DNA from: a virus | Taxonomy: Duplodnaviria > Heunggongvirae > Uroviricota > Caudoviricetes | DNA: 64,000 bases | Virus record (IMG/VR): IMGVR_UViG_3300021387_000895 | Span: 27,302 to 91,301 of that record | Direction: 5' to 3' (one strand) | Shown here: piece after piece, positions 6,841 through 64,000 of the stretch | Numbering within the stretch: the first letter of the stretch is position 1 | Layout: each line of letters opens with the position of its first letter | Notes under the pieces: model-generated | Told to the model about the DNA's origin: nothing | The model's database searches: none | What the model saw: only the letters and a program-made list of their open reading frames with translations | Position numbers and translations under genes: made by a program

Positions 6841-7042
6841 ATCCTACAAAAAGAATGAGGCCCACATTATGCAGACCTCATAAAATATGAAGGTGCCACC
6901 CGGATTCGGACCGGGGAATGAAGGTTTTGCAGACCTTTATTGTACAACATGTAGCATAATTCAAAATGGCAGTACACCATATATAGTGGATTAAGTACTT
7001 AAGACGAGACCGCATTGTTAAGATATATTTAATACATAATAT

Positions 7043-7120
7043 GCTAACGTAGTTCAAATGGTAGAACAGCCCTTTTCAGAGTCCAGGGTCGAGGTACTGG
7101 TTCGAGTCCAGTCGTTAGTA
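7043..7120 (+). tRNA. tRNA-like element with atypical (11-nt) anticodon loop
   Basis: Acceptor GCTAACG/CGTTAGT, D arm GTTC-AAATGGTA-GAAC, T arm ACTGG-TTCGAGT-CCAGT fold; anticodon stem GCCCT/AGGGT encloses 11 nt; 200 bp downstream of integrase. Confidence 0.4.
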
Positions 7121-7188
7121 ATGAAAACCAATCGATAGGCTGGATCGATTTGCCGCTAGGTTTTTGCTAAAATTTTAGAGGCGGCACA

Positions 7189-7228
7189 TTCGCGTTTCAA
7201 ACAGGCTCCTTAGTAGAAAGGAGTGTAA
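7189..7228 (+). promoter_or_regulatory. conserved early-cassette motif TTCGCGTTTCAAACA..CTCCTTAGTAGAAAGGAG (representative copy)
   Basis: Same motif recurs ~30 times upstream of small ORFs; contains the RBS of the downstream gene. Confidence 0.5.
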
Positions 7229-7231
7229 GGC

Positions 7232-7495
7232 ATGCTGGGTGATTATGGATACATTAATGTCAGGAGTATTACTTCACGAAAAGATTGTCGACAAATTAAG
7301 AACCGAATTAGAGACGAATTACTTTGGAGAGACCGGAAACTAAACGAAGAAATAATTCATAAGGTTTTCACGAAGTGCATAGACCAACTTGAAAAAGTCG
7401 GGTATCTAACAGAAACGACAATAAGAGATTTTGTTGATGAAGAAGTTCTTGGCAAAGATTCTAAGTATGCTTTTTGGTTTGAAACTCTATCTTAA
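7232..7495 (+). CDS. hypothetical small protein
   Basis: Preceded by early-cassette motif. Confidence 0.45.
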   Translation: MLGDYGYINVRSITSRKDCRQIKNRIRDELLWRDRKLNEEIIHKVFTKCIDQLEKVGYLTETTIRDFVDEEVLGKDSKYAFWFETLS

Positions 7496-7552
7496 CAAGA
7501 AAGCTCTGATTAATTTCAGGGCTTTAATTTTTTATTTAAGGAGGAATTAGAT

Positions 7553-8062
7553 GTGACTAATTTCAAGCTCGAGGCCCCGTGGTACACTTACAATAAGATG
7601 GTTACAGAACTATTTGAAAGCGATCAGAATGTGGAAGTCGGTGATATTGTCGATACTGGCGATGGTACTTTTTCTATGACCATCAGCGTTTCTGATCATG
7701 ACAAGTTTGTTGCTCTGGATCGTGTTATGCCCAATAAAGTTGAATTTGGTAATATTATCCTGAATATTATTGTTAAGTCTGCCGAGAGCAATGATGTGAT
7801 CGAAGATTATGTTGAACTTTACAAGACTATTTTTAAGAATAACCTGCTTGTCAAGGATTTCAAGGTTACCACTGACTTTGCAGGATCTACTCATTGCTTT
7901 GTTCGGTTTTGGCCGGAAGTTGTACAATTTTTTAACGACAATACTTCCGACTATGACGGTAATTGGTCTGGCCTTGCTCAGGATATTGCGAAGGAAATCT
8001 TTGCAGATTGTCCGGCTGGTATTCACTTCTGCACAGCTAGTATCAAGGAAAATGAAGCTTAA
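7553..8062 (+). CDS. hypothetical protein (GTG start)
   Basis: AGGAGG 7 nt upstream of GTG; preceded by hairpin + TTTAATTTTTT element shared with 59.3 kb. Confidence 0.45.
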   Translation: MTNFKLEAPWYTYNKMVTELFESDQNVEVGDIVDTGDGTFSMTISVSDHDKFVALDRVMPNKVEFGNIILNIIVKSAESNDVIEDYVELYKTIFKNNLLVKDFKVTTDFAGSTHCFVRFWPEVVQFFNDNTSDYDGNWSGLAQDIAKEIFADCPAGIHFCTASIKENEA

Positions 8063-8113
8063 GATTAAAAAGAAGTGATATTCAATAGGTAGTCTTTTAT
8101 GGCTACCTAATTT

Positions 8114-8187
8114 GCTCGATTAGCTCAGTAGGTTAGAGCAGCGGCCTTATAAGCCGTGTGTCCTGAGTTCGAGTCTCAGATCGAGTA
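8114..8187 (+). tRNA. tRNA-Ile (anticodon TAT/UAU), AUA-decoding
   Basis: Full cloverleaf: acceptor GCTCGAT/ATCGAGT, D stem GCTC/GAGC, anticodon stem GCGGC/GCCGT loop CTTATAA, T arm CTGAG-TTCGAGT-CTCAG. Confidence 0.6.
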
Positions 8188-8233
8188 TTATATTCGCATT
8201 TCAAACAGCCTCCTTAGTAGAAAGGAGTGATCT

Positions 8234-8455
8234 ATGATGTCTAAACTCATCGGAATGCTTTTTAAGGTTAAAACTGATGAGAAAGCTTTTGAAGAACTAA
8301 GAGATAGGACTAAAGACATGCCAAAGGAGTACCAAGATAGAGCTGAGTTTACTTTAGCTTGCTATGGTTTATTGAAATTCGGTATGGCGGCACTTATAAG
8401 TTCGGATTTGAAAAAGAAAAATGTTGAGGATTCCATGGAAAGTGCGGCATTATAG
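8234..8455 (+). CDS. hypothetical small protein
   Basis: Early-cassette motif upstream; terminator hairpin downstream. Confidence 0.45.
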   Translation: MMSKLIGMLFKVKTDEKAFEELRDRTKDMPKEYQDRAEFTLACYGLLKFGMAALISSDLKKKNVEDSMESAAL

Positions 8456-8576
8456 AAAATCTAATAAGCTGAGATAACACTCGGCTTATTTTTTTTCGCG
8501 ATTAAAACACATTTCTTAATAGATATAGGAGTCTTGATTTATTCAAGGCTCTATAGTTTTTAGGAGGTGTGATCCG

Positions 8577-8822
8577 ATGAATAATGTTAAGATTTCAACT
8601 AGCTGTCTTGAGGGATATTTGACTAAGGCTTGTCCGCATTGCGTGTTTTGGAGTGATGGAGACAACGAATTGCTCAACGAGGTCTATCCGATGGCATATG
8701 GAAGAGAATTAGGAGCTTCAGTAGGATGTTGCATTCCGGCTCCAATTGGCGACTGTCCTTTCTTCAGAGTATATGTCGAAGGTAAGAATGTACTCGCTCA
8801 ACTGGTTCAATCCCAGGAGTGA
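8577..8822 (+). CDS. hypothetical Cys-rich small protein
   Basis: GGAGG RBS; C..CPHC..CC motifs. Confidence 0.4.
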   Translation: MNNVKISTSCLEGYLTKACPHCVFWSDGDNELLNEVYPMAYGRELGASVGCCIPAPIGDCPFFRVYVEGKNVLAQLVQSQE

Positions 8823-8971
8823 GCAAAATCAAAATGGGATTAAATAGTGCTGTTTTCATTTGATTACCTCCTTTCTTGATATACGATATATAGAGGTTCC
8901 CATGATGCCGACCACATTGCACTAGCCTCTATACATATTAATAGTGATTGGATATCAGGAGGTTATTAACA

Positions 8972-9205
8972 ATGAATAATGAAGAATTAAAAGGCGATTC
9001 GAAGTGTTTTGTCATTTTTTATCGCTATGGATTAAGTTGCGGTGTAACAAAAGTCACAAGAAAATTAGATGATGCTATACGATTTATCTCTGAAATAACT
9101 GGAATTTCGCGTTTCGAAATAAATCAGAATTATGAAATGGGAAAGACTGAGGTGTTTGATAGATATAATACATTTTATTATATAGAAGAGCACCCATTAG
9201 ATTAA
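8972..9205 (+). CDS. hypothetical small protein
   Basis: AGGAGG RBS before ATG 8972. Confidence 0.4.
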   Translation: MNNEELKGDSKCFVIFYRYGLSCGVTKVTRKLDDAIRFISEITGISRFEINQNYEMGKTEVFDRYNTFYYIEEHPLD

Positions 9206-9272
9206 TCATAATTAAAGATTATTCGCGATTAAAACAAGCTGTATAATGATAAATTTAAAGGAGGGTTTTCTC

Positions 9273-9431
9273 ATGAAGAAATTCTTTGTTGAAGCTCGAA
9301 CCGATAATGGTATGAGGATTACGATGACTGTGCCTGCCGAAACCGCTATGGATGCGGAATTGGAAGCCGGTCGCAAGCTCATTTCCACCGGGTTCAAGAA
9401 CTCGAAGATTTCCATCGTGGAAGAGTGCTAA
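9273..9431 (+). CDS. hypothetical small protein (52 aa)
   Basis: AAAGGAGGG RBS; followed by strong terminator hairpin + T10. Confidence 0.4.
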   Translation: MKKFFVEARTDNGMRITMTVPAETAMDAELEAGRKLISTGFKNSKISIVEEC

Positions 9432-9480
9432 GGTTTATCGACCGATAATAAGGGATGCATAACGTGTCCCTTATTTTTTT
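9432..9480 (+). terminator. rho-independent terminator
   Basis: AAGGGATGCATAACGTGTCCCTTATTTTTTTTTT hairpin + T-run. Confidence 0.6.
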
Positions 9481-9483
9481 TTT

Positions 9484-9570
9484 GCCGGTATGGTGGAATG
9501 GCAGACACCTCAGACTTAAAATCTGATGTCCTTATTGGGCGTGCGGGTTCAAGTCCCGCTACCGGTACCA
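9484..9570 (+). tRNA. tRNA-Leu (anticodon TAA/UAA), class II with long variable arm, encoded CCA
   Basis: Acceptor GCCGGTA/TACCGGT + A + CCA; anticodon stem TCAGA/TCTGA loop CTTAAAA; T arm GCGGG-TTCAAGT-CCCGC. Confidence 0.75.
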
Positions 9571-9687
9571 GCTGTGTACACGGCTACAGACAAAACCTTA
9601 TGGGGCCGTTTGGTTTTTGCGAAGGTTTTTAGGGGCGGCCCTTTCGCATTTGAAACACACTCCTTAATAGAAAGGAGATGTATTTGA

Positions 9688-9948
9688 ATGTTTATTTCGA
9701 CTAAGGACTTTTATGAGGTTGGATGGTTCATATTTAAGCTGTTTGCTTTATATCGAATCATAAGTGCCGCATGCGCGATTGCGTTTTCTCTGATCAAGTT
9801 TAAACTTGATGAAAAGAAAGATCGCAAGACTGTATCGGCACCTGAGGTTCGTAAGGAAATACTCAATAAGATTGAGCCGCTTCACCTCGCATACAAACGT
9901 AGTGAGATTGGGTTCAAGACTGACACTATAAGGGATAAAGAGCCTTAA
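9688..9948 (+). CDS. hypothetical small membrane protein
   Basis: Early motif upstream; hydrophobic N-terminus. Confidence 0.4.
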   Translation: MFISTKDFYEVGWFIFKLFALYRIISAACAIAFSLIKFKLDEKKDRKTVSAPEVRKEILNKIEPLHLAYKRSEIGFKTDTIRDKEP

Positions 9949-10010
9949 TTACAAGGCTCTAATTATTTTCGCGTTTCAAACATACTCCTTAGTAGAAAGG
10001 AGGTGTTAGT

Positions 10011-10220
10011 ATGAAAAAGTGCATATTAATCGGTATAGGCATTGTGTCAGCAATAATAGGCTATTGCATCGCTGATGATCTTCCGTTCATAAAAAGATTG
10101 AATGAAGAAAACGAACGTCGTGAAAAAGATATTGATGAACAATTAAATCGAGTTATGGACGGCATTCATGACGATATGGTAAAACGCGCTCATGACGCTT
10201 TGAACCGGAATAATAAGTAG
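10011..10220 (+). CDS. hypothetical small membrane protein
   Basis: Early motif + GGAGG RBS. Confidence 0.4.
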   Translation: MKKCILIGIGIVSAIIGYCIADDLPFIKRLNEENERREKDIDEQLNRVMDGIHDDMVKRAHDALNRNNK

Positions 10221-10314
10221 TTTTGGATTGACAAAGACGATGATATTTATCAGTGGTTACATGCCACTGATTTTTTCGCGTTTCAAACATACTCCTTAGT
10301 AGAAAGGAGATGGT

Positions 10315-10650
10315 ATGATGTATACCGATTTTCAGAAGCACATAGTTAAGGCTTTGACCACGCTCTTTTATCAGGACACAGAAGGTATTGATTATTGGGA
10401 TGTAGACGGTAATAGTAGATGGATCGATATAACAGACAAAGAGGATGGCACTTTATATGAGCTTTCTCATAAGGTTATAGATAACCATGATTATATTGTC
10501 GTTAGAGCGATCGATTATGACGAATTTGGCGAAGCTGTAAGCGTGAAAGATATTTGCTATCTATTGGTATATAGAGAAAGAGCATGCTGGGATTTGATTA
10601 ACTACGCTGTGATGATCGAATGCATTATTACGAATCAAATTAGTTTGTGA
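10315..10650 (+). CDS. hypothetical protein
   Basis: Early motif upstream. Confidence 0.4.
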   Translation: MMYTDFQKHIVKALTTLFYQDTEGIDYWDVDGNSRWIDITDKEDGTLYELSHKVIDNHDYIVVRAIDYDEFGEAVSVKDICYLLVYRERACWDLINYAVMIECIITNQISL

Positions 10651-10732
10651 CTATATGAAATAAGCGGCAATTACAAGTCGCTTATTTTTTCGCGGTTGAA
10701 ACAGTCTATTTATTGAAAGGGGGATGCTTACT

Positions 10733-10996
10733 ATGATGAAGCAACCGTATTCAATAGAGGAGCTGAGATGGTTTCTCAAGATGCTTAATATTTCTATGGC
10801 TACACTTGGGCAATGGTGCGGATTAACCAGACAAGCCGTAAGTAATTTATTCAATGGACGTGCAAACGATAATTGTGTGTTTAAACACAGACTGCTGTTT
10901 ACCTACATAATCAATGATTATATTACTAATGATTTGAATGGGGATGTCGCATCGCTTTATGCTATAGTGAAAGCTAGGATGGATCAAAAATATTAA
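10733..10996 (+). CDS. hypothetical protein (possible HTH)
   Basis: Early motif variant upstream. Confidence 0.35.
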   Translation: MMKQPYSIEELRWFLKMLNISMATLGQWCGLTRQAVSNLFNGRANDNCVFKHRLLFTYIINDYITNDLNGDVASLYAIVKARMDQKY

Positions 10997-11066
10997 TGGA
11001 GAGTTTTCTACTCTCCTCTATTTTTCGCATTTGAAACAAGCATTTTCATGAAGGAGGTAAGTAAAA

Positions 11067-11411
11067 ATGTTTTGTGAAAACGTGTTAGATGAGATTTATG
11101 GTCCCGTCAATCTTAGTGAGTTCAACAAATTAGTTGAGCTTGTTAAAGCTGAAGGAATACCCTATGAAACTCGTTCACGACTTGGCGGAATGCAGATGAT
11201 GATTCCAACCATCGATGCTTACGTTAATGAGACCGATGAAAGAAGAATTTCCATCGTCTTGTTTAACGGATGCTATGGTGGTGAGAATGGTCTCATGAAG
11301 ATCTTTGCGCCAGGTCTTAATAAAGGGGTTGAGGGATTCTTGAATGCTGAGCAAGCTCTTGATTACATCAAGGACACTAGGGCTGGGATCTCAAGAGGAT
11401 CTATCGGATAA
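11067..11411 (+). CDS. hypothetical protein
   Basis: Early motif + AAGGAGG RBS. Confidence 0.4.
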   Translation: MFCENVLDEIYGPVNLSEFNKLVELVKAEGIPYETRSRLGGMQMMIPTIDAYVNETDERRISIVLFNGCYGGENGLMKIFAPGLNKGVEGFLNAEQALDYIKDTRAGISRGSIG

Positions 11412-11531
11412 AGATATAACGACCGATTTCAAAATGGCAGTTGAAACATACTGCTATTTTTTTTGTTTTTAATCATTGCGCTGATAGTGGTATTATGCTA
11501 TAATAAACAAAACTATAAAGGAGGTTCTTTT

Positions 11532-11780
11532 ATGGAACAAGAAGCAACTAAGAGGGTTCGCAGGAGCAAGGAAGAGATCGTATCTGACAAGATCAGTAAG
11601 CTAGAGGCGAAGATCGCTGAATATGAGAGTAAGATCGCTTCGGCAAAGAAAGAGATCGAGGAATTAAAGAACCCTGTTTCAACAGTTAAGATGAAAGATA
11701 TTAAGGATAAGATTACTGAATACGATCTTTCTCTTGATGACGTCATGAAGGCAATTGAGAAAATGGGTAATAAGAAGTGA
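11532..11780 (+). CDS. hypothetical coiled-coil protein
   Basis: AAGGAGG RBS; terminator downstream. Confidence 0.4.
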   Translation: MEQEATKRVRRSKEEIVSDKISKLEAKIAEYESKIASAKKEIEELKNPVSTVKMKDIKDKITEYDLSLDDVMKAIEKMGNKK

Positions 11781-11859
11781 TACTGAGCCTGTCCTAGTGA
11801 CAGGTTCTTTTTTTTTCGCGTCATAAACATTCTATTTAATAGAGAATAGAAAGGAGATT

Positions 11860-12135
11860 ATGACTATGAAACTGTTTGGAACTAAGAAAGTTAAGGTTTA
11901 TACGACCGACTTTGAATCTCTGTCGATATTCGATCATCTTTGTGTTGAAAGTGACATGTATGAAGATTATGTTACTTCCGCTTGGGACGAAGAAGAAGGA
12001 TATTACAAGATTTACCAGGTTAAGTGGAACATGCTTACTAAGTTTACCAAGGCTGTTGAGAAGTATAACAATCTGGCTAGGCTCGATCATGTGAAGGAAA
12101 GAATAAATAGGATTGAGATGAAAATACTGGGCTAA
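11860..12135 (+). CDS. hypothetical protein
   Basis: Early motif variant. Confidence 0.4.
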   Translation: MTMKLFGTKKVKVYTTDFESLSIFDHLCVESDMYEDYVTSAWDEEEGYYKIYQVKWNMLTKFTKAVEKYNNLARLDHVKERINRIEMKILG

Positions 12136-12201
12136 TCACAGCTCAGTATTTTTTTTTTCGCGTTATAAACATTCCTTATGATGAAAAGGAGGTTTATAAC
12201 T

Positions 12202-12399
12202 ATGAAGGAAGCTATTTTTGACTATGCGGTAATTGTTATACTCGTTGCGATGATGCTGGCTATGTTCGGATCGTGCGTGATGCTATTAATTAACTGGAAC
12301 ATCGAATGGTTCACAATAACAGCTGTTACAACTGCAATCGGTACCGTATTCTGTGTGCTTACTTCTGATAAGCAGCCAGACGAAGACGAAGAGCCTTGA
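12202..12399 (+). CDS. hypothetical small membrane protein
   Basis: AAAGGAGG RBS; two hydrophobic helices. Confidence 0.4.
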   Translation: MKEAIFDYAVIVILVAMMLAMFGSCVMLLINWNIEWFTITAVTTAIGTVFCVLTSDKQPDEDEEP

Positions 12400-12497
12400 T
12401 TAGTACAAGGCTCTAATTTTTCGCATTTGAAACAGACGGCTTAGTAGAAGTGAGAAGCATAATCTCATTTCTATATATTTTTAGGAGGTAGTTAATC

Positions 12498-12731
12498 ATG
12501 TCTAAGATCGGAGATGCTATTATTACTGGCGAAGAATTGTTCCAGAAGGCAAGAGAAAAGTATGAGATGTTTGATAACTTTGTAAGAAATGGTGTCAATA
12601 CTACGGAGAACGCATGCAAGAGGGCGTTCTGGCTTGGAGAACTTGTAGCTTATGCAAAGTATAATGAGAAGATATTCGGTGATGAAGAGCTTAGACGAAT
12701 TGTTGAACAAGAAATGAATATAGAACTATAA
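12498..12731 (+). CDS. hypothetical protein
   Basis: AGGAGG RBS. Confidence 0.4.
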   Translation: MSKIGDAIITGEELFQKAREKYEMFDNFVRNGVNTTENACKRAFWLGELVAYAKYNEKIFGDEELRRIVEQEMNIEL

Positions 12732-12858
12732 GTCTTATTAAGCTCGTGGTTAAAACTACGGGCTTATTTTTTTTTTCAAAATGGCATTAATTCTCGCATT
12801 CAAAACACGCTAGTTAATGAAGCTCATTGAGCTGTCAAATAATTGAAAGGAGTATATT

Positions 12859-13161
12859 ATGAGCAAAACATTTGCTTTGGGCAGAGTGGTTGCCACAAGG
12901 CGTGTTTGGGAATTAATTGAGTCTGATGAATACTTTTCTAGGTTTGTTTCGCTCTGTATGAGTCGTTATGTTACTAACGATTGGGGCGAGCTGCACCCAG
13001 ATGATTGGAAACTGAACGATGAGTCAGTAGATGGAGAAGGTAGGATATTAGCTTCTTATCCTCTTCCTGAAACAATAGAAGTAGAGTTTGAAGATAAATT
13101 ATGGATCATAACGGAATGGGATCGTTCGGTTACGACAATTCTATTCCCTGGAGATTATTAA
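12859..13161 (+). CDS. hypothetical protein
   Basis: AAGGAG RBS. Confidence 0.4.
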   Translation: MSKTFALGRVVATRRVWELIESDEYFSRFVSLCMSRYVTNDWGELHPDDWKLNDESVDGEGRILASYPLPETIEVEFEDKLWIITEWDRSVTTILFPGDY

Positions 13162-13267
13162 GCTGACTGACTAGTTTGTTGGCAGCTCAGTGGGTTTCGC
13201 CTTTGAAACAAATTATTATTTTTTTTTCGCATCATGAACATGCTATTATATGAAAGGAGTGTTTTAA

Positions 13268-13564
13268 ATGAAATGGATTAAGGATTTTTACGAACCGATT
13301 ACCAGAACATATTTCAAAGCTCCAATTTCGATTGTGAATTCACGTATCAATGAATTCAATAAACTGCTGAAGAATAAGTCTATAAGTATGAATGACGCGC
13401 TGGAGTTATGTGGACTTCCAAGGCTTGATGATAGCAGAGCAGACAAGAAACTGAACGTGAGCAGAGTGGAAGTTGGGCTACCTAAGATTGGTAAAGAAAG
13501 GGGGTACTATTATTATCCGATCGTTTATTACGACCGTGAGAACCAAGAGGTTAAGTTGGGTTGA
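13268..13564 (+). CDS. hypothetical protein
   Basis: Early motif variant (CGCATCATGAACA). Confidence 0.4.
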   Translation: MKWIKDFYEPITRTYFKAPISIVNSRINEFNKLLKNKSISMNDALELCGLPRLDDSRADKKLNVSRVEVGLPKIGKERGYYYYPIVYYDRENQEVKLG

Positions 13565-13628
13565 GCAATCAACCCTTCTTTTTTTTTTCGCATCATGAAC
13601 ATACTATTATATGAAAGGAGGTGCTGAC

Positions 13629-13985
13629 ATGGCACTGTTTGGAATAGCAATGAAGAAACGAGAAGAATCATTATCGGAGTACATCACTCGGATAACCAGA
13701 GACATTGTCTTAGCAGAGATTTCGGACGAGGAGTCGAAGAATAAGCATCCTGACGTTTATTGGGAAAAGGATGGACGCCACATTAAGTGGATGAAGCTCA
13801 TTAACGCAAAACGTCATATATTCTATAATACCCTAATCGAGAACGGTATCTGCGAAGAAGCTGCAAATGCTTTGGCGTATAGAGTGCATGGCTACGACGT
13901 GACGAAGAAGACTTATGGCATCTATTGCGAGAACAGTTGGTCGCATCAGAAAAAGAAAGAAGAACAACAAAAGGGCTCTGAGTAA
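13629..13985 (+). CDS. hypothetical protein
   Basis: Early motif variant nearly identical to the one before 13268. Confidence 0.4.
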   Translation: MALFGIAMKKREESLSEYITRITRDIVLAEISDEESKNKHPDVYWEKDGRHIKWMKLINAKRHIFYNTLIENGICEEAANALAYRVHGYDVTKKTYGIYCENSWSHQKKKEEQQKGSE

Positions 13986-14053
13986 TCAGGGCTCTATTTT
14001 TTTTCGCATTTGAAACAAATGATTTAATAGAAATAATTTGGAGGTATTTGATC

Positions 14054-14278
14054 ATGAAGAAGTATATTCTACTGGGTGCTTTTACTTTTGTGGCGTTGAT
14101 TGGACTTATGCTGATTAACGATTACGTGCTGTTTCCTGGAATCACAACAGAAAGTCTTTTGGAAAGTAAGACCTTCTTCTCTGTGATAAAGGTTGCATTT
14201 ATCGAGGCGGTTATTGGTACAACGGTAACGTGGGTAATAGGATGGTTATTCTTTTCGGAGAAGGATGCTGACAATTAG
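14054..14278 (+). CDS. hypothetical small membrane protein
   Basis: Two TM helices. Confidence 0.4.
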   Translation: MKKYILLGAFTFVALIGLMLINDYVLFPGITTESLLESKTFFSVIKVAFIEAVIGTTVTWVIGWLFFSEKDADN

Positions 14279-14396
14279 GTCGAGGTTATAAGCTCTTGAT
14301 TGCAACAAGGGCTTATATTTTTTCAGTATGAAATTCGCGTCCTAAACATTCCTCTTAATAGGAAACTATACTATTTACATTAGGAGGTATGGAACT

Positions 14397-14840
14397 ATGG
14401 CGAATAGGATTTCTGACGAAATTAAGGATAAGGTCGAAGAATTGTCTAAGACTGGAATGAGCAAGAGGAGAATTGCTGATGAGTGCAAGATCTCTGTAGG
14501 AAGTGTCACTCGCATTCAAAATGAGAGAGATATCGATGTCCCTTCAAGAGAAAAAGGAGGCAGGGTTTCGAGAAAAGTTGATCTTTCTGAGATTAATCTT
14601 GAAAAGGAAGAGGACGAGGAACCCAAGTTTACCATCTTGAAGCAGAAGACCATCGAACTTGTTGGTGTGAGAACGAACTACACCTACGAGGTAGCTTTGC
14701 ATGGCAAGGATCTCAGAATCAAGACCGGTTATTCTGAAGATATTGTCATCGACCTTAAGGATGCTGCTGGTTTTGCAGAAGAAATCGCAGAGGTTGTAAG
14801 GACTGTGCTGAAGATGAGACAGAATGTATGGGAACCGTGA
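14397..14840 (+). CDS. HTH DNA-binding protein (putative regulator)
   Basis: N-terminal SKTGMSKRRIADECKISVGSVTRIQNE helix-turn-helix. Confidence 0.45.
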   Translation: MANRISDEIKDKVEELSKTGMSKRRIADECKISVGSVTRIQNERDIDVPSREKGGRVSRKVDLSEINLEKEEDEEPKFTILKQKTIELVGVRTNYTYEVALHGKDLRIKTGYSEDIVIDLKDAAGFAEEIAEVVRTVLKMRQNVWEP

Positions 14841-14933
14841 TATTAGGTATACCGCTGTGGAGACATGGCGGTATTTTTTTTCTCGCGGGATAAACATTCT
14901 TTTTAATAGAGATTATACATGGAGGTGTTACTA

Positions 14934-15146
14934 ATGAAACTTGATACTTTAGAAAAGGACATACTCATGATGTTGATCGGCAACGCGACTTTTTTAGCCG
15001 TTAAAAAGCTCTGCCCGATTAAGCCCATTGTTATTGGTGCTGCTATTATTAACGGAGCCATTGCGGTTAAGGGTGTTGTTGACGTTGTGACTGACATTCG
15101 CGACTATTCGAAAGAAAGAAAGATGGTGATTGAAGAACGTGCATGA
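14934..15146 (+). CDS. hypothetical small membrane protein
   Basis: GGAGGTG RBS. Confidence 0.4.
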   Translation: MKLDTLEKDILMMLIGNATFLAVKKLCPIKPIVIGAAIINGAIAVKGVVDVVTDIRDYSKERKMVIEERA

Positions 15147-15250
15147 ACTCTGTACGATATAAGTAGGCTTAACAGTCTACTTATATTTTTCTCGCGGCAA
15201 CAACAAGTATTAAGATGAGGAAGACCGAAATAATAAGGAGGTATTGACTT

Positions 15251-15526
15251 ATGGATCTGAGGTATTTCAACATTATTCTTAGCAAGAATGGCTACGTGAA
15301 CAATGAGGAGATGCAAATCGGACTCCGATATACACTTCTGGCAAGCGGTATTGTGCCAATGGACGTTCATGAAGCGGACTTGGTAGAAGCTGCTACCGGA
15401 AAGCCCGTCGGATTTGAGGTGCTGATTCTAAACTGTGTCGAATCTATTCCCGGCGCTAAGGAACTGTTCAAGAAGGATCACAATATGACAGAAATTACGT
15501 ATGAGGGACTTCCCACAATTATGTAA
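15251..15526 (+). CDS. hypothetical protein
   Basis: AGGAGG RBS. Confidence 0.4.
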   Translation: MDLRYFNIILSKNGYVNNEEMQIGLRYTLLASGIVPMDVHEADLVEAATGKPVGFEVLILNCVESIPGAKELFKKDHNMTEITYEGLPTIM

Positions 15527-15622
15527 CGAATATGGCTCGTGGTATTAACTACGGGCCTTATTTCTTTTTCGCGATCAAAACTTGCTTCTTAATGAATATT
15601 AAAAAAGGAGGTGCAACACTAT

Positions 15623-16096
15623 ATGAGTGTCGCAAGTAAACTGATTAAGTTCGGCAAAGTCGAAACGCCAACACTGGACGAATTCCAATGTAAGCTCCAA
15701 GTTGATATGATGGAGCTCAAGGACAAGATCAAGAAAAAGACAAAAGAGATAATCGCGCAACGCAATAAGTTGAGTGACCAGAAGAAGCTGTTTGACGATG
15801 ACTTGATCAAAGCAGAGGAAGAGAAACTGAATGTTCTTAAGGAAGAGCGAGATGAATTACAGGCTGAATACAAAGATGATATTGAAGCCTATAAAACAAT
15901 TGAGCAAATCCTTAAGATACGTGAAGAGAAACGGACTGCAAAGGCAAGTCGTCTTTACGCAGGTCTGAGTGTACTCATTTGCGCTGGTGGTATTGGCCTG
16001 GCTTATGGGTCTGATACATGGGCTACTTTAGTGAACAGGCATACAATGGATGCTGTTAAATTGGCTATGACTCGACTAATGCCAAAGATAATCTAG
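15623..16096 (+). CDS. hypothetical coiled-coil / C-terminal membrane protein
   Basis: AAGGAGGTG RBS. Confidence 0.4.
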   Translation: MSVASKLIKFGKVETPTLDEFQCKLQVDMMELKDKIKKKTKEIIAQRNKLSDQKKLFDDDLIKAEEEKLNVLKEERDELQAEYKDDIEAYKTIEQILKIREEKRTAKASRLYAGLSVLICAGGIGLAYGSDTWATLVNRHTMDAVKLAMTRLMPKII

Positions 16097-16181
16097 GATA
16101 CAAGCGGGGCATGTCTAGTACATGCCCTTCTTTTTTTTTTCGCATTTCAAACATACCTCCTATTGAAAGGAGGTGAAAAGG

Positions 16182-16298
16182 ATGTTGTTCAAGATCATGA
16201 TAGCCTTAGCAGCCTATTACCTGGGGAAAGCTAATCTCGATATTAACGAGTTCCTCTCGGTATTAGCGGCATTAATGAGGCTTGACAATGATGAATGA
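16182..16298 (+). CDS. hypothetical 38-aa peptide
   Basis: Perfect early motif + AAAGGAGGTG RBS at correct spacing; below the ORF-track length cutoff. Confidence 0.3.
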   Translation: MLFKIMIALAAYYLGKANLDINEFLSVLAALMRLDNDE

Positions 16299-16426
16299 CA
16301 CCTATAAGCGACCTTTCGGAGGTATCCGGGGTCCGCCTTGGATACCTTTCTTATATTTTTTTCAAAATGGCATTAACGCGGCATAAACAAATGATATAGT
16401 AGAGAAATACAAAGGAGGAATTAGTT

Positions 16427-16687
16427 ATGTTGAATCTGATTTTGGGTTACCTTGGTATAGGACTGGTGGTCTATGTGATTGCCTGCACTTTGATCGTGAT
16501 TTTCTCGATGGAGCTGTATGGAATCGATCGCAAAGAGCTTTTGAAAAATGAAGCTCAGCGATTCAATTTCATATCCATCCTTGGGATATTGCTATTCTGT
16601 GCGGCTTACCCTTATTACATCGTCGTGTATGCTATTTTTGTATACCACAGGGTCAAGGACATCATGGCGAATGATAAGTTTGAATGA
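16427..16687 (+). CDS. hypothetical small membrane protein
   Basis: AAAGGAGG RBS; TM helices. Confidence 0.4.
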   Translation: MLNLILGYLGIGLVVYVIACTLIVIFSMELYGIDRKELLKNEAQRFNFISILGILLFCAAYPYYIVVYAIFVYHRVKDIMANDKFE

Positions 16688-16690
16688 CTC

Positions 16691-16730
16691 GACCAATAGG
16701 CTCGTAGTAAAAACTACGGGCTTATTTTTT
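16691..16730 (+). terminator. rho-independent terminator, member of repeated hairpin family
   Basis: GGCTCGTAGTAAAAACTACGGGCTTATTTTTT; near-identical copies at ~12733, ~15531, ~17160. Confidence 0.6.
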
Positions 16731-16774
16731 CTCGCGGGATAAACAAGTGTATTAATAGAAAGGAGTGGATTAGA

Positions 16775-16900
16775 ATGAAGGTACTTAATACTTTAGCTGC
16801 TATCGGTGTTATGACTCTGGTGTTCATTGGAGTAAAGACAGCAATGGCGGTGAACGAGATCGTCAACGGTCCGTTCCCTAAGGAGAAAAAGGGGTCTTAA
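16775..16900 (+). CDS. hypothetical 41-aa membrane peptide
   Basis: Early motif + AAAGGAG RBS; hydrophobic. Confidence 0.3.
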   Translation: MKVLNTLAAIGVMTLVFIGVKTAMAVNEIVNGPFPKEKKGS

Positions 16901-16965
16901 CAGGCCCCTAATTTTTTCGCGGCAAAAACAAGCGTCTTAATAGAAAGGAACAAGGAGGTATTCGT

Positions 16966-17151
16966 ATGAAAACTATAATTCGTATCGGAACTGCGTTGGT
17001 GATAGTAGCGGGGCTTGGCCTTCTGATCGACGGAATTGCCAATAATGTGGCAAATAAAGTCGTAGAGAAGCTGGCCACGCAGGATGCCAAACGTCCGAAA
17101 AGGATCGAACTCGATGACGACGAACCACTGGAACCAGACGAAATTGATTAA
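16966..17151 (+). CDS. hypothetical small membrane protein
   Basis: Early motif upstream. Confidence 0.4.
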   Translation: MKTIIRIGTALVIVAGLGLLIDGIANNVANKVVEKLATQDAKRPKRIELDDDEPLEPDEID

Positions 17152-17240
17152 CCGATCAATGGGCTCGTAGTGAAAACTACGGGCTTATTTTTTTTTCTCG
17201 CGTCGCAAACAAGCAGCTTAATAGAAAGGAGGGAAGTCAA

Positions 17241-17372
17241 ATGTTTTTAAGGTTTATCGCTACAATGACTGTTTACGGAATTCTTAAGACAAAAGATAAG
17301 ATGGAAACTCTTTGCGAGAAAATGGAAAAAGCAGTTAAGGATGAACTAAGCAAGAAAAAGGAAAAGACTTAA
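17241..17372 (+). CDS. hypothetical 43-aa peptide
   Basis: Early motif + AAAGGAGGG RBS. Confidence 0.3.
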   Translation: MFLRFIATMTVYGILKTKDKMETLCEKMEKAVKDELSKKKEKT

Positions 17373-17446
17373 CTATACGAGTGAGATGTCTTGGCAAAAC
17401 CACGGCATCTCGTTTTATCCATATTTCTTTTGCGGAGGACTCTAGA

Positions 17447-17725
17447 ATGTGTGTTTTAAGCATTACAGTAATAGGAAATGACTTATTCAAAATAGTAGCT
17501 GAAAAATTGGAGTTAGTAAAACTTAATCCGGTTAATCAAGTTAATTCCGGAATGTTTGGTAACTTAAAGATGTTAACCTATAGATTTGAACTTCAGGAAT
17601 CAGAAGTAATAGAAAAACGAAAAGAGCTTCTTAATGAACTGGCAAAAGATAATTTAAGATTACAGCCAATGTATGTCCATGGTGATTGGATGAGGATATT
17701 TGTCATGCGTCCAATAAAGACTTGA
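17447..17725 (+). CDS. hypothetical protein
   Basis: GGAGG RBS before internal ATG. Confidence 0.35.
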   Translation: MCVLSITVIGNDLFKIVAEKLELVKLNPVNQVNSGMFGNLKMLTYRFELQESEVIEKRKELLNELAKDNLRLQPMYVHGDWMRIFVMRPIKT

Positions 17726-17769
17726 TTTCGCGATCTAAACACGCTCCTTAGTAGAAAGGAGGATAGAAC

Positions 17770-18027
17770 ATGGACAAGAAAAAGACTGTTGTAGTCGATG
17801 GCCAGGAATACGTTTCTGTAGATCTTATGATCGAAGAAATGGTACGTGAGTGCGTTATCTGGACTAACGTCAATGACATTGAAGTTGGCGAAATTGAAAG
17901 TGATCGCATTGCCGCGTATCAGATTCTTCTTGAAGATATGCAGAAAGTCAGCTTTCCTGGACTTCAGAAGAAGTTTAAAGACATGTACATCAAGGAGAGA
18001 TTTATCGAAAGAACATTGGGGGTTTAA
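17770..18027 (+). CDS. hypothetical protein
   Basis: Early motif upstream. Confidence 0.4.
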   Translation: MDKKKTVVVDGQEYVSVDLMIEEMVRECVIWTNVNDIEVGEIESDRIAAYQILLEDMQKVSFPGLQKKFKDMYIKERFIERTLGV

Positions 18028-18079
18028 TCCCCCAATTTTGTTTTTTTTTTCTTATTTGATAGAATGGAGGTTAACGCTA

Positions 18080-18313
18080 GTGGCTACTACAATAACAGTC
18101 AATGATAATGGAACTATTGTTGGGTATCTTCCGGCTAGTGAGATCGCAAAAGAATGGGGAGTTGAGAACTCGACGATTAGAGTATGGATAAAACGAGGTA
18201 AATTAAAATCTCTTAAAATAGGGAACGAGCACTACATAAAGCAAAACACTGAGAAACCGGAACCTAAAAAGAGAGGTAAGAAGCCTCAAAATTATTACAG
18301 AAAACCGATTTAG
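18080..18313 (+). CDS. excisionase-like HTH DNA-binding protein (GTG start)
   Basis: IAKEWGVENSTIRVWIKRGKLKSLKIG is a typical Xis/HTH_17 helix-turn-helix. Confidence 0.45.
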   Translation: MATTITVNDNGTIVGYLPASEIAKEWGVENSTIRVWIKRGKLKSLKIGNEHYIKQNTEKPEPKKRGKKPQNYYRKPI

Positions 18314-18321
18314 GAGGAACT

Positions 18322-18513
18322 ATGAATAAGTATAAAGTGATATTTGAGATTCACGTTGACCGAAACCGTAAGGAATTCAAGGAAATAATCGTTGAAGCAG
18401 GAACTAAAAAGCTTGCGATGGTACGCGCTCTTTCAGAAATTAATAAAATTAAAGAATACGAAGGAATATTTAAAAATATTAAAGAAATTGAGGAGGTTTA
18501 TGATGGGCGATAA
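18322..18513 (+). CDS. hypothetical small protein
   Basis: GGAGG RBS. Confidence 0.4.
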   Translation: MNKYKVIFEIHVDRNRKEFKEIIVEAGTKKLAMVRALSEINKIKEYEGIFKNIKEIEEVYDGR

Positions 18514-18850
18514 AAACGATCTTTGCTTTGGTCAGTTGTTTTTAAAGGATGAAAAAGGTGATTATCAAAGAATTGCAGAAGGTGAGATTAAGACCGTCTC
18601 ATTAATTGATGATAATTCTATACACCCGAGTTTATTCGAACATACATTACATCCTTTTGATTGGCGAGGGGAAGTTACCGCTACGTTTACTCCTAAAACA
18701 AGCAAAAGAATGAATAAAAGGATAAAAGATCTTCTTAAATTTGGATGGATTAATGGCATTAGAACTGGAGCGCCTTTAAGGAAGAGGCTGTTACTCAAAA
18801 CGAATAGAGAAGTAAATAAGAAAAGGAGAGATATTCGTTATGGCAATTAA
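18500..18850 (+). CDS. hypothetical protein
   Basis: GAGGAGG RBS; overlaps previous stop. Confidence 0.4.
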   Translation: MMGDKNDLCFGQLFLKDEKGDYQRIAEGEIKTVSLIDDNSIHPSLFEHTLHPFDWRGEVTATFTPKTSKRMNKRIKDLLKFGWINGIRTGAPLRKRLLLKTNREVNKKRRDIRYGN

Positions 18851-19001
18851 GGAAGTTCGATTTGACGAGTATTGCAAGATTTGCAAATACTTCGAAAAGA
18901 GTGAAGCAGAAGATCCTTGCTATGACTGCCTTAATCAAGGATGGAATACTGATAGTCATAAGCCTATCATGTTTGAAGAAAAGGATGGTTCTAATGAGTA
19001 A
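18840..19001 (+). CDS. hypothetical 53-aa Cys-rich (CxxC..CxxC) peptide
   Basis: Overlapping start; zinc-ribbon-like cysteines. Confidence 0.3.
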   Translation: MAIKEVRFDEYCKICKYFEKSEAEDPCYDCLNQGWNTDSHKPIMFEEKDGSNE

Positions 19002-19224
19002 ACCTATTGCAGGATCTTCAAAATGTAAAGAGTTACTAGATAAATTCGAAGCTCTATTTCCATCCTATAAGGGGAAGATCGTTTATTATCAACCTTATGA
19101 TCGAGTTAGTTTAAGGCTGACAATTAATCACTTGACTTATATTTTCACATATGTGAACGAGAAAGTATGGGGATTTCAAACAGAAAAACACTTTATTGAC
19201 TCCTCACGATCGATTCGAAGATGA
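18994..19224 (+). CDS. hypothetical protein
   Basis: ATGAGTAA overlap with previous gene. Confidence 0.35.
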   Translation: MSKPIAGSSKCKELLDKFEALFPSYKGKIVYYQPYDRVSLRLTINHLTYIFTYVNEKVWGFQTEKHFIDSSRSIRR

Positions 19225-19299
19225 TTCGCGATTAAAACAAGCGATAAGATGAAGGATTGGAGGAGTGTAAAAACCGGCGGAGGCCCTATGGATAATCCC

Positions 19300-19390
19300 A
19301 AGTGTGTTAGCCGTCAGTAATAGTTCAATGGTAGAACGCCACTGAACTTAGGTTTGGTGGAGACGTCTGTTCGAAGCGGACAAATCCTTT
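19300..19390 (+). other. tRNA-like fragment (degenerate)
   Basis: D arm GTTCAATGGTAGAAC identical to the 7043 element and T arm GTCTG-TTCGAAG-CGGAC, but no acceptor stem can be paired. Confidence 0.25.
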
Positions 19391-24931: not shown

Positions 24932-24945
24932 AGGAGTGATATTTA

Positions 24946-26228: not shown

Positions 26229-26312
26229 ATCGCGGTCAAAACAAGCAGTATTATGAAGGGGTTGAAAATTCAGCCTCTTATATTTTTCCCATTAGGGATA
26301 GGAGGTAATCCA

Positions 26313-30580: not shown

Positions 30581-30748
30581 TATCTCGCGATCAAAACAAG
30601 CCGTATAGTGATAAGGAGTTGTGAAAAGCAGCCTCTTATATTTTTCTCTACTGATATGACGGACTTTATGGAGGTGAAATTATGTCTCGTTGGATTGGTG
30701 ACTAATTGGATTAACGTTGGTGATATTTGGTAATAAGGAGAGCAAGGA

Positions 30749-33533: not shown

Positions 33534-33752
33534 ATGAAAAAGAAACACTGTTATATTTGCAACCGCGAAGTGGTTCCGGCATTTAAGTTCGGAGCCACTT
33601 TCTATACTCGAAAAAAGAAGCTAATTGGTAATGGGTACAAAATAGTGTCTCAATACAAACGGCTATATTTGTGTAGCAAATGCATTGAGACAGCAAAGGC
33701 TCTCATAAGTCACAATATCGCGGTCAAAACAAGCGACATAATAGACGAATAA
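33534..33752 (+). CDS. hypothetical zinc-ribbon protein
   Basis: CYICN..CSKC. Confidence 0.35.
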   Translation: MKKKHCYICNREVVPAFKFGATFYTRKKKLIGNGYKIVSQYKRLYLCSKCIETAKALISHNIAVKTSDIIDE

Positions 33753-33789
33753 ACTTTCGTCATATATTTTTTGTAAGGAGGAGACTAAA

Positions 33790-36793: not shown

Positions 36794-36895
36794 TCGCGGT
36801 CAAAACAAGTTTGTTGGTGATAAAGGGCTCTAAATACAGGGCTCTTTATTTTTCTTTATAGGGAATGGACCAAATAAAAATCAGGAGGCAGGATT

Positions 36896-38787: not shown

Positions 38788-39038
38788 CGTGATCGCGCTG
38801 ATTATTGTAGTAGTCTTCATTATTTTTGTACTAGCAACCATGTGATTCACAATCAATTCGCATTTGAAACACGTTCTTTAGTAGAAAGGAGATGGTTGCT
38901 ATGAAGAAGGTTCTTTAACTAGAAATGTTGAATAGTAACTGGTGTCCATAATGCAAGTAAGGAAGGGTCTAAACAACTCTTCCTTATATTTTTACCTTAT
39001 CACTAGAACGACCAATGTAATTAAAGGAGGAAACTGGT

Positions 39039-47026: not shown

Positions 47027-47075
47027 TATTCTCGCGGTTAAAACAAGTAGTGTAATGATGAGAGGAGGTGAGACT

Positions 47076-51338: not shown

Positions 51339-51475
51339 ATAAATGATATATTTTCTCGCGCTGAAAACACGCAGGAGAATGAAGAGGGATTTGTATTGAA
51401 TCTCTCTTCTTTATTTTTACGAATGGAATTTGAATCGAAGACTTATATTTGAAATACGAAATTTGGAGGTGAAGG

Positions 51476-58668: not shown

Positions 58669-58786
58669 AACCGCTTATGGATATTTTATGTCTTAATATG
58701 GGTTTGATTCCCATTCAAGGCTTATACTAATTTTTAATAGGATTCGCGGTTTAAACATGCTCCTTAATAGAAAGGAGATGTGGTAA

Positions 58787-61819: not shown

Positions 61820-62117
61820 GCTTTGAGGGGCTTCGGTCCCTCAGCTCTATTTTTTTCTGTTTCTTCTAGTGATAAGTTTTTTCGCACCCGAAACACGCAT
61901 TATAGTAGAGGGAAGACAGAGAGTGTGCCATTGAGTTCGTGGCAGACTCTTTATATTTTGTTTTTCATCGGCGGACACTCCTTTAAAGTTTTTCCCTGCT
62001 AACCATACCGAACAAGTTTCCTCGACATGCCGGTGGCCTTTCGTCAGGTCGGACAAAGTCTTCCCTCGTTTGAGGAAAACAGCTTATTGATATTTTGCAT
62101 AAGAGGCGATCCCACAT

Positions 62118-63063: not shown

Positions 63064-64000
63064 ATGCTTTATGACGAATACGGGATTTACAAAGGAATGA
63101 TATCCGACAATGCTAAATCTCGACTGTCACACTACGGCACTCCAAGACACTCTGGCAGATATCCTTGGGGATCTGGTGAGAATCCGTATCAGCGCAATGC
63201 GGATTTTTTGGGTCAGATCGAAAAGATGCGAAAGCAGGGTGTCAGCGAAAAAGATATTGCCGCTTCAATGGGTATCAACACCAGCGAGCTGAGAAAGCGC
63301 AAGTCCCTGGCCAGGGCTGAGAATCGCGCATATTTATCAGCCGAAGCAAAGCGGCTCAAGGAAAAGGGAATGTCTACGTCCGCGATTGCAAGGCGGATGG
63401 AGATGAATGAATCGTCTGTTCGTTTGCTCCTTGACGAAGGCGTGAATGAACGCATGAGTTCCACCGCAAAGAATGCTGCTGTTCTCAAGAGCCGTGTCAA
63501 TGAGTATGACTACATTGACGTCGGCAAGGGATCTGAGGAGTATCTCGGGATATCTTCAACGAGCATGAATAATGCGCTTAAGATATTGGAGAATGAAGGC
63601 TATACGATTCACGAGGTTCCTGTGGAGCAGATGGGTACCGGCAAGATCACCAAGATCAAGGTGCTTGCCAAGCCCGGTGTAGAATGGCGAGAGGTTGCCC
63701 AGCATAAGGGTGACATTAAACCGGTTCAGGATCTCGGTTTATATTCTGAGGATGGCGGAGAGACGATAAGAAAGATCGAAAAGCCGGTGAGCATCGATCC
63801 TAAGCGGGTTGATATTTGCTATGCTGAAGATGGCGGCGAAGATAAGGATGGACTGATCGAGCTCAGGCGCGGCGTGGATGATATTTCACTCGGCAATGCC
63901 AGGTATGCTCAGGTTCGAATTCTTGTTGACGACAGCCATTATATTAAAGGTATGGCTGCCTATTCTGACGACCTGCCTCCGGGAATTGATATTCGGTTCA
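63064..64000 (+). CDS. HTH-containing protein, 3' end outside window (GC-richer than neighbours)
   Basis: Open frame from ATG 63064 to window end; two HTH-like segments (ASMGINTSELRKRKSLA, STSAIARRMEMNESSVRLLL); not in ORF track because no stop reached. Confidence 0.45.
   Translation, partial: MLYDEYGIYKGMISDNAKSRLSHYGTPRHSGRYPWGSGENPYQRNADFLGQIEKMRKQGVSEKDIAASMGINTSELRKRKSLARAENRAYLSAEAKRLKEKGMSTSAIARRMEMNESSVRLLLDEGVNERMSSTAKNAAVLKSRVNEYDYIDVGKGSEEYLGISSTSMNNALKILENEGYTIHEVPVEQMGTGKITKIKVLAKPGVEWREVAQHKGDIKPVQDLGLYSEDGGETIRKIEKPVSIDPKRVDICYAEDGGEDKDGLIELRRGVDDISLGNARYAQVRILVDDSHYIKGMAAYSDDLPPGIDIRF

Follow-up and report, generated by a model that had tools for sequence, protein, structure and literature searches.

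Phage-encoded RNA polymerases and repeated motifs

Conserved motifs that are repeated in front of early genes and read by an RNA polymerase of the phage itself are already well known as a general kind. Virion RNA polymerases have been described for N4, the crAss-like phage phi14:2 and P23-45, together with early-gene motifs (10.1101/2020.03.07.982082; 10.1101/2022.12.01.518664), and for P23-45 motifs are known for both the virion and the non-virion polymerase. In format, the nearest known promoter to the element discussed here is the late promoter of the non-virion RNA polymerase of AR9, 5'-A(-11)ACA-N6-U-A/G(+1) (PMC5449584). For YonO, the polymerase of the Bacillus prophage SPbeta, one late start site has been reported; the promoter sequence was not determined and its recognition was left open (PMC5467207). 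In this work, a repeated motif is analysed in a stretch of 64,000 nucleotides (nt), hereafter called the window, which covers positions 27,302 to 91,301 of the IMG/VR virus record IMGVR_UViG_3300021387_000895 (Caudoviricetes) and represents part of a phage genome with every gene on the plus strand. The motif occurs 36 times, and judging from the sequence it is probably the promoter of the phage's own predicted single-polypeptide, two-barrel RNA polymerase of the YonO/RNA-dependent RNA polymerase (RdRP)-like kind, the gene of which starts at position 63064.

This polymerase has been described as a signature gene of a supercluster of actinobacteriophages and Lactococcus and Faecalibacterium phages, for which a DxDGD motif, an HHpred match to RdRPs of 95.7% and helix-turn-helix (HTH) domains at both ends were reported, with promoters unmentioned (10.1101/842583). 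In the searchable literature, no promoter, activity or biochemical data were found for this polymerase family. A repeat of another description is known from the cluster AU Arthrobacter phages, where a 32-base-pair (bp) intergenic 'boundary' repeat has six copies around genes 37-41 of Giantsbane. In the preprint passages available, it is interpreted as a recombination sequence, with no link to a polymerase or to transcription (10.1101/2020.01.10.891226).

A three-box motif at fixed spacing

When the core TTCGCRNTNNAAACA is searched with at most one mismatch, 30 matches are found in the window, all on the plus strand, against 1.0 expected. An iterated position matrix returns exactly 36 sites with scores of 24-47 bits, again all on the plus strand. 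No site scores between 6 and 24 bits, the minus strand reaches 3 bits at best, and 50 shuffles reach no more than 10.8 bits. The copies consist of three boxes at fixed spacing: T-CGC-R, N6, (A)ACA, N10, an invariant T and a purine. The N10 segment ends in TTAa or TTAg before the invariant T, and the last box has the general form TTAaT|AGA or TAaT|GA. Invariant in all 36 copies are TCG C, AAC and the T located 11 nt after ACA, and this T is followed without exception by a purine (20 A, 16 G). From CGC to ACA the distance is exactly 10 bp, or one helical turn. The next start codon is found 10-57 nt past the invariant T in 29 of the 36 copies.

The distribution of these sites follows the gene organization. 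A 12-kb block of small open reading frames (ORFs) is tiled by 27 copies, one per small ORF and on its 5' side, and the copies outside the block head operons. A preliminary description of this DNA had listed 27 sites in the block and nine outliers, which agree with the 36 matrix sites within a few bases. It had also proposed a longer conserved cassette. The repeat itself is real, but the long string CTCCTTAGTAGAAAGGAG is present in just 9 copies at up to three mismatches, and the AAGGAG within it is a ribosome-binding site. The long form TTCGCRTTTSAAACANNCTCCTTARTAGAAAGGAG has no match in IMG/VR and is specific to this phage. Identity between some copies reaches 92-98% over 41-48 nt, and the true repeat is only about 35-56 nt long, since the flanking hairpins are mostly unrelated in sequence.

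The motif in related phages

The primase/polymerase (DNA polymerase) of the window is about 50% identical to those of Faecalibacterium phage FP_oengus and of many Arthrobacter, Gordonia and Streptomyces phages. Absence of the motif from related phages had been named in the preliminary description as a finding that would count against its proposals; the relatives carry the motif. The geometry C-R-C-R, N6, ACA, N10, T-R is shared by four isolates, on the gene strand only, with 14 copies in FP_oengus, 11 in Lactococcus phage 1706, 12 in Arthrobacter phage Giantsbane and 13 in Gordonia phage Petito. These copies are located mostly 5' of small early ORFs, just past the tail or integrase genes, and none is found in the structural genes of these four phages. 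The contig MT835495 contains one true copy, its other matrix matches being noise.

A family-level matrix with a threshold of at least 16 bits was applied to 80 IMG/VR polymerase loci (1.24 Mb) and 27 control phage loci (0.53 Mb). The polymerase loci give 142 matches on the gene strand and 0 on the other, and the control loci give none on either strand. The controls are unrelated large phages that were found through homologues of a 700-residue protein (20753-22855), and no polymerase homologue was seen in their sampled stretches. The motif is present in 73 of the 80 metagenomic polymerase loci. In all 65 loci with at least 1.6 kb of upstream sequence, a copy is located 850-1600 bp upstream of the polymerase gene, where it heads a nuclease-exonuclease-polymerase operon, as copy 36 does in the window; this is also seen in the closest relative contig. 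The box sequences vary by phage lineage (TCGCG, ACGCG, CCGC, CACA), and the spacing is constant. Drifting boxes at a fixed spacing are as predicted for a reader that is encoded by the phage.

The YonO/RdRP-like RNA polymerase

The proposed reader of the motif is encoded on the plus strand at 63064..64000, where the N-terminal 312 codons, with sigma-region-4-like HTH domains, are present before the gene runs off the window. This fragment is 42% identical to gp55 of FP_oengus over 311 residues (E 2.5e-63, tblastn), a protein with the annotation RNA-dependent RNA polymerase and the sequence GADFDGD. FP_oengus gp55, 1706 orf75 and Giantsbane gp93 share an invariant ADFDGD, and the window gene ends after codon 312, before that loop. 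Pfam gives matches to Sigma70_r4_2 and HTH_23 and a sub-threshold RdRP match, and in the homologues both ends carry HTH domains. No match to the polymerase was obtained in sequence searches of the PDB. The AF2 model has low confidence, especially beyond residue 540, which makes the fold searches suggestive at most.

The protein is present in about 250 GenBank phages, and its homologues form more than 8000 protein clusters in public data. The family spans hundreds of phages of actinobacteria and lactococci, and FP_oengus-like versions are very common in metagenome assemblies. The closest homologue retrieved is 61% identical. In the original GenBank record of phage 1706, the homologue orf75 is labelled 'structural protein', a label that reportedly rests on mass spectrometry of virions.

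Two further observations were made near homologues of this gene. In the closest relative contig (L009, 10001-11296), the homologue of the polymerase N-terminus reaches a stop after 312 codons, and the next gene lies on the reverse strand; the gene may be split or carry an insertion, or the contig may be misassembled. In the record of phage 1706 (51634-52081), three direct repeats of about 35 nt (CTATCACGAAAAAACTTCGGGAAAACTTCGGGATT) are present in a 450-nt gap 5' of the polymerase gene, and they resemble iterons or a regulatory array.

Proposed position of the transcription start

The sequences directly downstream of the motif constrain where transcription can begin. In 17 of the 36 copies, the ribosome-binding core begins 3-6 nt past the invariant T. 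In FP_oengus, an oddly formed transfer RNA (tRNA)-like gene called by ARAGORN begins 2 nt past the invariant T of a motif copy. In most of the polymerase-operon leaders of related phages (52 distinct), a predicted hairpin begins at +1 or +2 after the T; the stems differ in sequence, with 4 pairs showing compensatory changes in a rough alignment. Because of the Shine-Dalgarno sequences at +3 to +6, the tRNA-like gene at +2 and the leader hairpins at +1/+2, the start is placed at or just past the invariant T, and most simply it would be the purine after it. Relative to this proposed start, T-CGC-R is located at about -25 to -21, (A)ACA at -15 to -12 and TTAAT/TTAGT at -5 to -1.

Terminators, leader hairpins and individual copies

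Between positions 6800 and 19600, 35 terminator-like sites (a G+C-rich hairpin followed by a T-run) are found against 7.1 +/- 2.8 expected. A terminator hairpin with a T-run had been described earlier in front of the copies. This holds for most copies in the block (17 by a strict search without bulges), but not for all of them, and an abutting upstream terminator is found at 0 of the 9 outlier copies; in the strict search, outlier copy 36 has a hairpin 38 nt upstream. A hairpin and T-run between the motif and the next gene is observed in nine copies (seven of the nine outliers and two in the block), including most of those that head later operons. This hairpin begins 1-8 nt past the invariant T in copies 3, 12, 28, 29, 30, 31 and 34. 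In copy 36, a folded leader begins about 5 nt past it, and in copy 32 the hairpin is located about 75 nt downstream, past a very short ORF. As a separate observation, the terminator GGCTCGTAGTnAAAACTACGGGCTTATTTTTT recurs four times (12732, 15525, 16690 and 17153), from which it follows that some terminator-promoter junctions were duplicated as units.

Three tRNA or tRNA-like genes are found among the first units of the block. Copy 1 (7190..7215; TCGCG-N6-ACA-N10-T|A; 37.5 bits) is located 3' of a tRNA-like gene and has its Shine-Dalgarno sequence 5 nt past the invariant T, copy 2 (8194..8219; 39.1 bits) lies directly 3' of tRNA-Ile, and copy 5 (9644..9669; 36.9 bits) lies 3' of tRNA-Leu. Copy 3 (8496..8521; 39.4 bits) has a terminator on its 5' side and a hairpin with T-run on its 3' side (8528-8562), and copy 12 (12421..12446; 37.1 bits) is immediately followed by a hairpin with T-run (12446-12482). 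The TATAAT|G variant is found in copy 4 (9223..9248; 34.4 bits), and the Shine-Dalgarno sequence begins 3 nt past the invariant T in copy 9 (11025..11050; 36.3 bits). Copies 14 (13227..13252; 34.2 bits) and 15 (13588..13613; 33.6 bits) are GAACA variants that are 98% identical over 41 nt. The weakest copies in the block are 19 (15192..15217; 24.7 bits) and 22 (16376..16401; 23.9 bits). The block further contains copies 6 (9969..9994; 45.8 bits), 7 (10276..10301; 46.6 bits), 8 (10690..10715; 39.7 bits), 10 (11816..11841; 43.4 bits), 11 (12158..12183; 41.2 bits), 13 (12794..12819; 34.5 bits), 16 (14004..14029; 39.9 bits), 17 (14335..14360; 30.3 bits), 18 (14883..14908; 39.9 bits), 20 (15569..15594; 36.7 bits), 21 (16140..16165; 37.9 bits), 23 (16732..16757; 36.5 bits), 24 (16917..16942; 46.2 bits), 25 (17198..17223; 44.9 bits) and 26 (17728..17753; 41.4 bits). 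Copy 27 (19226..19251; 26.5 bits) is followed by about 200 nt of non-coding, tRNA-like sequence.

Outside the block, copy 28 with its hairpin (26256-26279) and T-run spans 26230..26287 (29.3 bits) and heads an operon. Copy 29, with a folded hairpin and T-run, spans 30585..30646 (31.1 bits), copy 30 with hairpin (33744-33761) and T-run spans 33718..33769 (31.1 bits), and copy 31 with hairpin (36819-36850) and T-run spans 36794..36858 (24.5 bits). The unit of copy 32, its very short ORF, hairpin (38957-38987) and T-run covers 38858..38995 (34.3 bits). Copy 33 (47032..47057; 32.7 bits) heads the operon with the sigma-factor gene, copy 34 with hairpin (51381-51409) and T-run (51356..51417; 31.8 bits) is located 5' of the DNA polymerase region, and copy 35 is found at 58744..58769 (39.6 bits). 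Copy 36, with its leader hairpin and T-run (61882..61966; 37.8 bits), heads the nuclease-exonuclease-RNA polymerase operon, and its position is conserved in all relatives examined.

Proposed mechanism

If the motif is the promoter of the YonO/RdRP-like polymerase, the T-CGC-R and (A)ACA boxes would be read as duplex DNA by the sigma-region-4-like HTH domains fused to the polymerase, and the A/T-rich TTAAT/TTAGT box would be the site of DNA opening. Transcripts would begin with AGAAAGGAG or GAAAGGAG, very close to the ribosome-binding site. Probably the virion carries the polymerase, in which case the early-block promoters could fire at once on infection. The 12-kb block would then consist of 27 promoter-ORF units, most of them ended by a terminator, that express small early genes. 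The hairpins past the promoter may attenuate or delay expression, or stabilise the 5' end.

Several points weigh against this mechanism. The catalytic part of the polymerase gene lies outside the window, the virion association comes from one record annotation in one relative, and the control loci cover just about 20 kb per phage. The versions of the motif in actinobacteriophages have a perfect TATAAT at -6 to -1, which makes the use of host sigma-A possible there. In addition, the same motif stands at the head of the polymerase operon, and an integrase is encoded by the phage, which leaves prophage induction unexplained: at induction no virion-delivered enzyme would be present, so that another first push would be needed.

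A more far-reaching version of the mechanism, in which the transcription system is self-sufficient, is tentative and rather doubtful as a whole. In this version, a virion-delivered polymerase of about 920 residues with built-in sigma-region-4-like HTH domains would need neither a sigma nor a host factor. It would recognize a three-box duplex promoter, with CGC-R at -24, ACA at -14 and TAAT at -4 to -1, and would transcribe the early, middle and polymerase/late operons alike. Timing would be set by the intrinsic-terminator-like hairpins at +1/+2 of the later operons, through antitermination or attenuation. A polymerase operon behind the same promoter and an attenuator would act as a positive-feedback switch, and the 36 promoters could remain silent in a lysogen without a repressor at each of them.

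Alternative explanations

The motif could represent unusual host sigma-A promoters, in which TAATAG or TATAAT serves as the -10 element and an activator, from the phage or the host, occupies the upstream boxes. Giantsbane and Petito have a perfect TATAAT as their last box, TATAAT also occurs in window copy 4, and the upstream T-runs look like UP elements. However, no -35-like element is found at 16-18 bp, the spacers between the boxes being 6 and 10 nt, which does not fit TTGACA and TATAAT hexamers 16-18 bp apart. A scan of the block for sigma-70-type promoters gives 36 matches against 37 +/- 6.4 expected, without enrichment, and together with the geometry this agrees with the earlier remark that the core is not a sigma-A -35/-10 pair. 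With a sigma-70-type start 6-8 nt past the box, 17 window copies and phage 1706 would lose the ribosome-binding site, and in FP_oengus the start would fall within the tRNA-like gene and thereby cut it. Also, the rigid geometry is constant across hosts of two phyla while the boxes drift by lineage, and the motif is absent in the 27 other phage loci. This explanation is considered unlikely.

Transcripts could also start elsewhere and read through the motif, which would then be a transcribed 5' leader or a signal at the RNA level (processing, antitermination or translation). The strict strand specificity and the location next to ribosome-binding sites and tRNA-like genes fit this idea, as does an inverted repeat of at least 5 bp (anti-Shine-Dalgarno/Shine-Dalgarno) across the site in 12 of the 36 copies, against 6.6 +/- 1.8 in permutations. 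Most copies in the block, however, abut the T-run of a terminator, which leaves no space for another promoter. No conserved internal structure is present, 24 of the 36 copies and phage 1706 entirely lack the inverted repeat, and no Rfam family matches the motif. Invariant blocks at a fixed spacing with free spacers look instead like a protein-DNA site, which makes a leader function improbable. The preliminary description had left the choice between a promoter and a leader or translation signal; of these, the promoter is the best reading, and the translation signal is retained only for AAGGAG, as the ribosome-binding site.

Other candidate elements were considered and dropped. An RNA hairpin of CTCCTT and AAGGAG that hides the ribosome-binding site was rejected as the core of the element, as it occurs in one third of the copies and near-identical duplicates confound its statistics. 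Neither a boxA/nut-like antitermination site nor an extracytoplasmic function (ECF) sigma -35 element (TGAAAC) was retained, as the position is wrong and no matching downstream element is found. A hairpin promoter of the N4 type was discarded, with an inverted repeat of at least 5 bp in only 12 of the 36 copies and none in phage 1706.

It is quite unlikely that the boxes are operators of a phage regulator, such as a prophage repressor, that overlap weak promoters. In favor of such a function, the phage has an integrase and must silence 36 sites in a lysogen, and HTH proteins, read from the sequence, are encoded in the block (e.g. 10724-10996 and 14397-14840). Against this, the site is asymmetric and non-palindromic, and the motif is also found in phages that are described as lytic (1706 and, according to the preprint passages on cluster AU, Giantsbane; 10.1101/2020.01.10.891226). 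No single small HTH protein has been shown to be common to the motif-bearing phages, whereas motif and polymerase gene occur together in 65 of 65 loci.

The reader suggested in the preliminary description, the sigma factor encoded at 47786-48448 acting with the host core RNA polymerase, is very unlikely. The protein has sigma-70 regions 2 and 4, and the motif does not resemble a sigma-A promoter. No homologue of it at E <= 1 is found, however, in six motif-bearing relatives (the complete genomes of FP_oengus and 1706, the sequenced parts of Giantsbane and Petito, MT835495 and L009), where the common factor is the YonO/RdRP-like polymerase. An IMG/VR search with the sigma factor gave no relatives, and its nearest relatives are SigF-like sigmas of Bacillus phages. 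Its own gene is located downstream of motif copy 33. In addition, boxes spaced by 10 and 11 nt and a start that adjoins the last box are unlike a -35/-10 promoter with its start 6-8 nt downstream.

A primary role as recombination boundaries that shuffle small-gene cassettes, as proposed for the cluster AU repeat, is highly improbable: the repeats flank each small gene, some pairs are nearly identical over 41-48 nt, one terminator family recurs, and gene rearrangements are reported in the repeat-flanked region of Giantsbane (in the passages available of 10.1101/2020.01.10.891226), but this leaves unexplained the strict orientation, the fixed distance to ribosome-binding sites, the positions that are invariant across phyla and the conserved copy 5' of the polymerase operon. 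Recombinational shuffling at the repeats is possible and could be a by-product of promoter function.

Gene content of the window and further observations

The first part of the window contains tail and lysis genes, including an endolysin (3809-4831, plus strand), and is followed by an integrase (5911-6840, plus strand) and the 12-kb small-ORF block. Nucleotide-metabolism and replication genes are located 3' of the block (a ribonucleotide reductase fragment, a PurZ-like gene, the sigma-70-like gene and a primase/polymerase of 1406 residues). PHROG gave no informative matches for the small ORFs of the block, and a GenBank search at the DNA level with window positions 7000-20000 found no similar phage.

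An Rfam search of the window gave three tRNAs as the sole matches at the gathering score. The tRNA-like gene at 7042-7121 is called by ARAGORN with an odd anticodon loop and scores 50.7 bits with the Rfam tRNA model. At about 19290-19395, 3' of motif copy 27, a tRNA-like stretch TAGTTCAATGGTAGAAC ... TTCGAAGCGGACA is followed by a T-run, and it is called by neither ARAGORN nor Rfam. Two genes of the block without a motif copy are preceded by host-type promoter candidates with an extended -10 element: TTGCGC-N17-(TGc)TATAAT at 11476-11504, before the gene at 11532, and TGaTAGAAT at about 18050-18070, before the HTH gene at 18080 and its tightly packed operon.

The ribonucleotide reductase ORF (28778-30253) matches only the C-terminal part of the barrel domain and the TSCPD domain, which suggests that the gene is split or interrupted. 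A PurZ-like adenylosuccinate-synthetase homologue (42280-43368; PHROG 1211, Pfam PF00709) suggests that 2-aminoadenine may replace adenine in the phage DNA; FP_oengus, 1706, Giantsbane, Petito and the 80 polymerase loci yielded no homologue of it. The octamer TGATATTT is present 31 times on the plus strand and 0 times on the minus strand of the window (e.g. at 24937, 45498, 62088 and 62424), where about 3 per strand are expected from composition by our own estimate, and GATATTT occurs 54 times on the plus strand and 0 times on the minus strand. The octamer sites are located inside ORFs as well as between Shine-Dalgarno sequences and ATG. In FP_oengus, the octamer is found 36 times on one strand and 2 times on the other, with some copies about 20 nt or less from both ends of the record, and no such excess is observed in phage 1706 and Giantsbane. 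The octamer could act as a polar DNA signal, either Chi-like or for priming, or it could represent a second promoter class.

Implications

The motif provides a precise consensus and a predicted start site for a widespread, uncharacterised polymerase family. With these, it would become possible to test directly whether a single-chain enzyme related to the cellular RNA polymerases locates promoters unaided, via its fused HTH domains, whether these phages can do without the host polymerase in early transcription, and what role is played by the conserved hairpins right after the promoter. If the promoter function is true, the interpretation of these repeats as recombination sequences would be corrected. 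Transcription units could also be annotated better in many phage genomes, and a new orthogonal polymerase-promoter pair might become available for Gram-positive hosts.

Comparison with known systems

The cluster AU repeat is probably the same element as the motif. The Giantsbane copies of the motif include sites flanking genes 37-41, and the two are matched by this position, as the repeat sequence is not part of the available preprint passages.

Among the polymerases, YonO resembles the window enzyme, by description: both are phage-encoded single polypeptides and distant relatives of multisubunit enzymes and RdRPs. In both systems a long operon is transcribed from a dedicated promoter, followed by non-coding RNA (PMC5467207). 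The window has 36 sites, mostly 5' of early and middle genes, whereas YonO has one late start, and the HTH fusions and the putative virion association are features of the window polymerase group.

With N4, phi14:2 and P23-45, the proposed system would share an injected polymerase and a conserved motif repeated 5' of many small early genes. Their enzymes are giant proteins or tape-measure fusions, in contrast to the polymerase of about 920 residues proposed here, and the N4 promoters are DNA hairpins, whereas a hairpin that spans the site is present in just one third of the window copies. The T7-type promoters are alike in being contiguous over about 25 nt, in having an A/T-rich stretch (-4 to -1) that directly precedes a purine start and in their purine-rich initial transcript, and the motif of phage 1706 shares CACTATAG with them. 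The fold of T7 polymerase is unrelated (Pol A-like), so that this resemblance is one of analogy only.

The AR9 enzyme consists of five subunits, uses gp226 and reads template-strand uracils, whereas the window enzyme is predicted to be a single polypeptide with fused HTH domains. The distance from ACA to the T is 10 nt in the window motif and 6 in AR9, and only the window motif has the extra CGC-R box one helical turn upstream. In both, a short phage-specific promoter with an upstream AACA box would serve a two-barrel polymerase, with T or U at -1, a purine at +1 and no -35/-10 pair.

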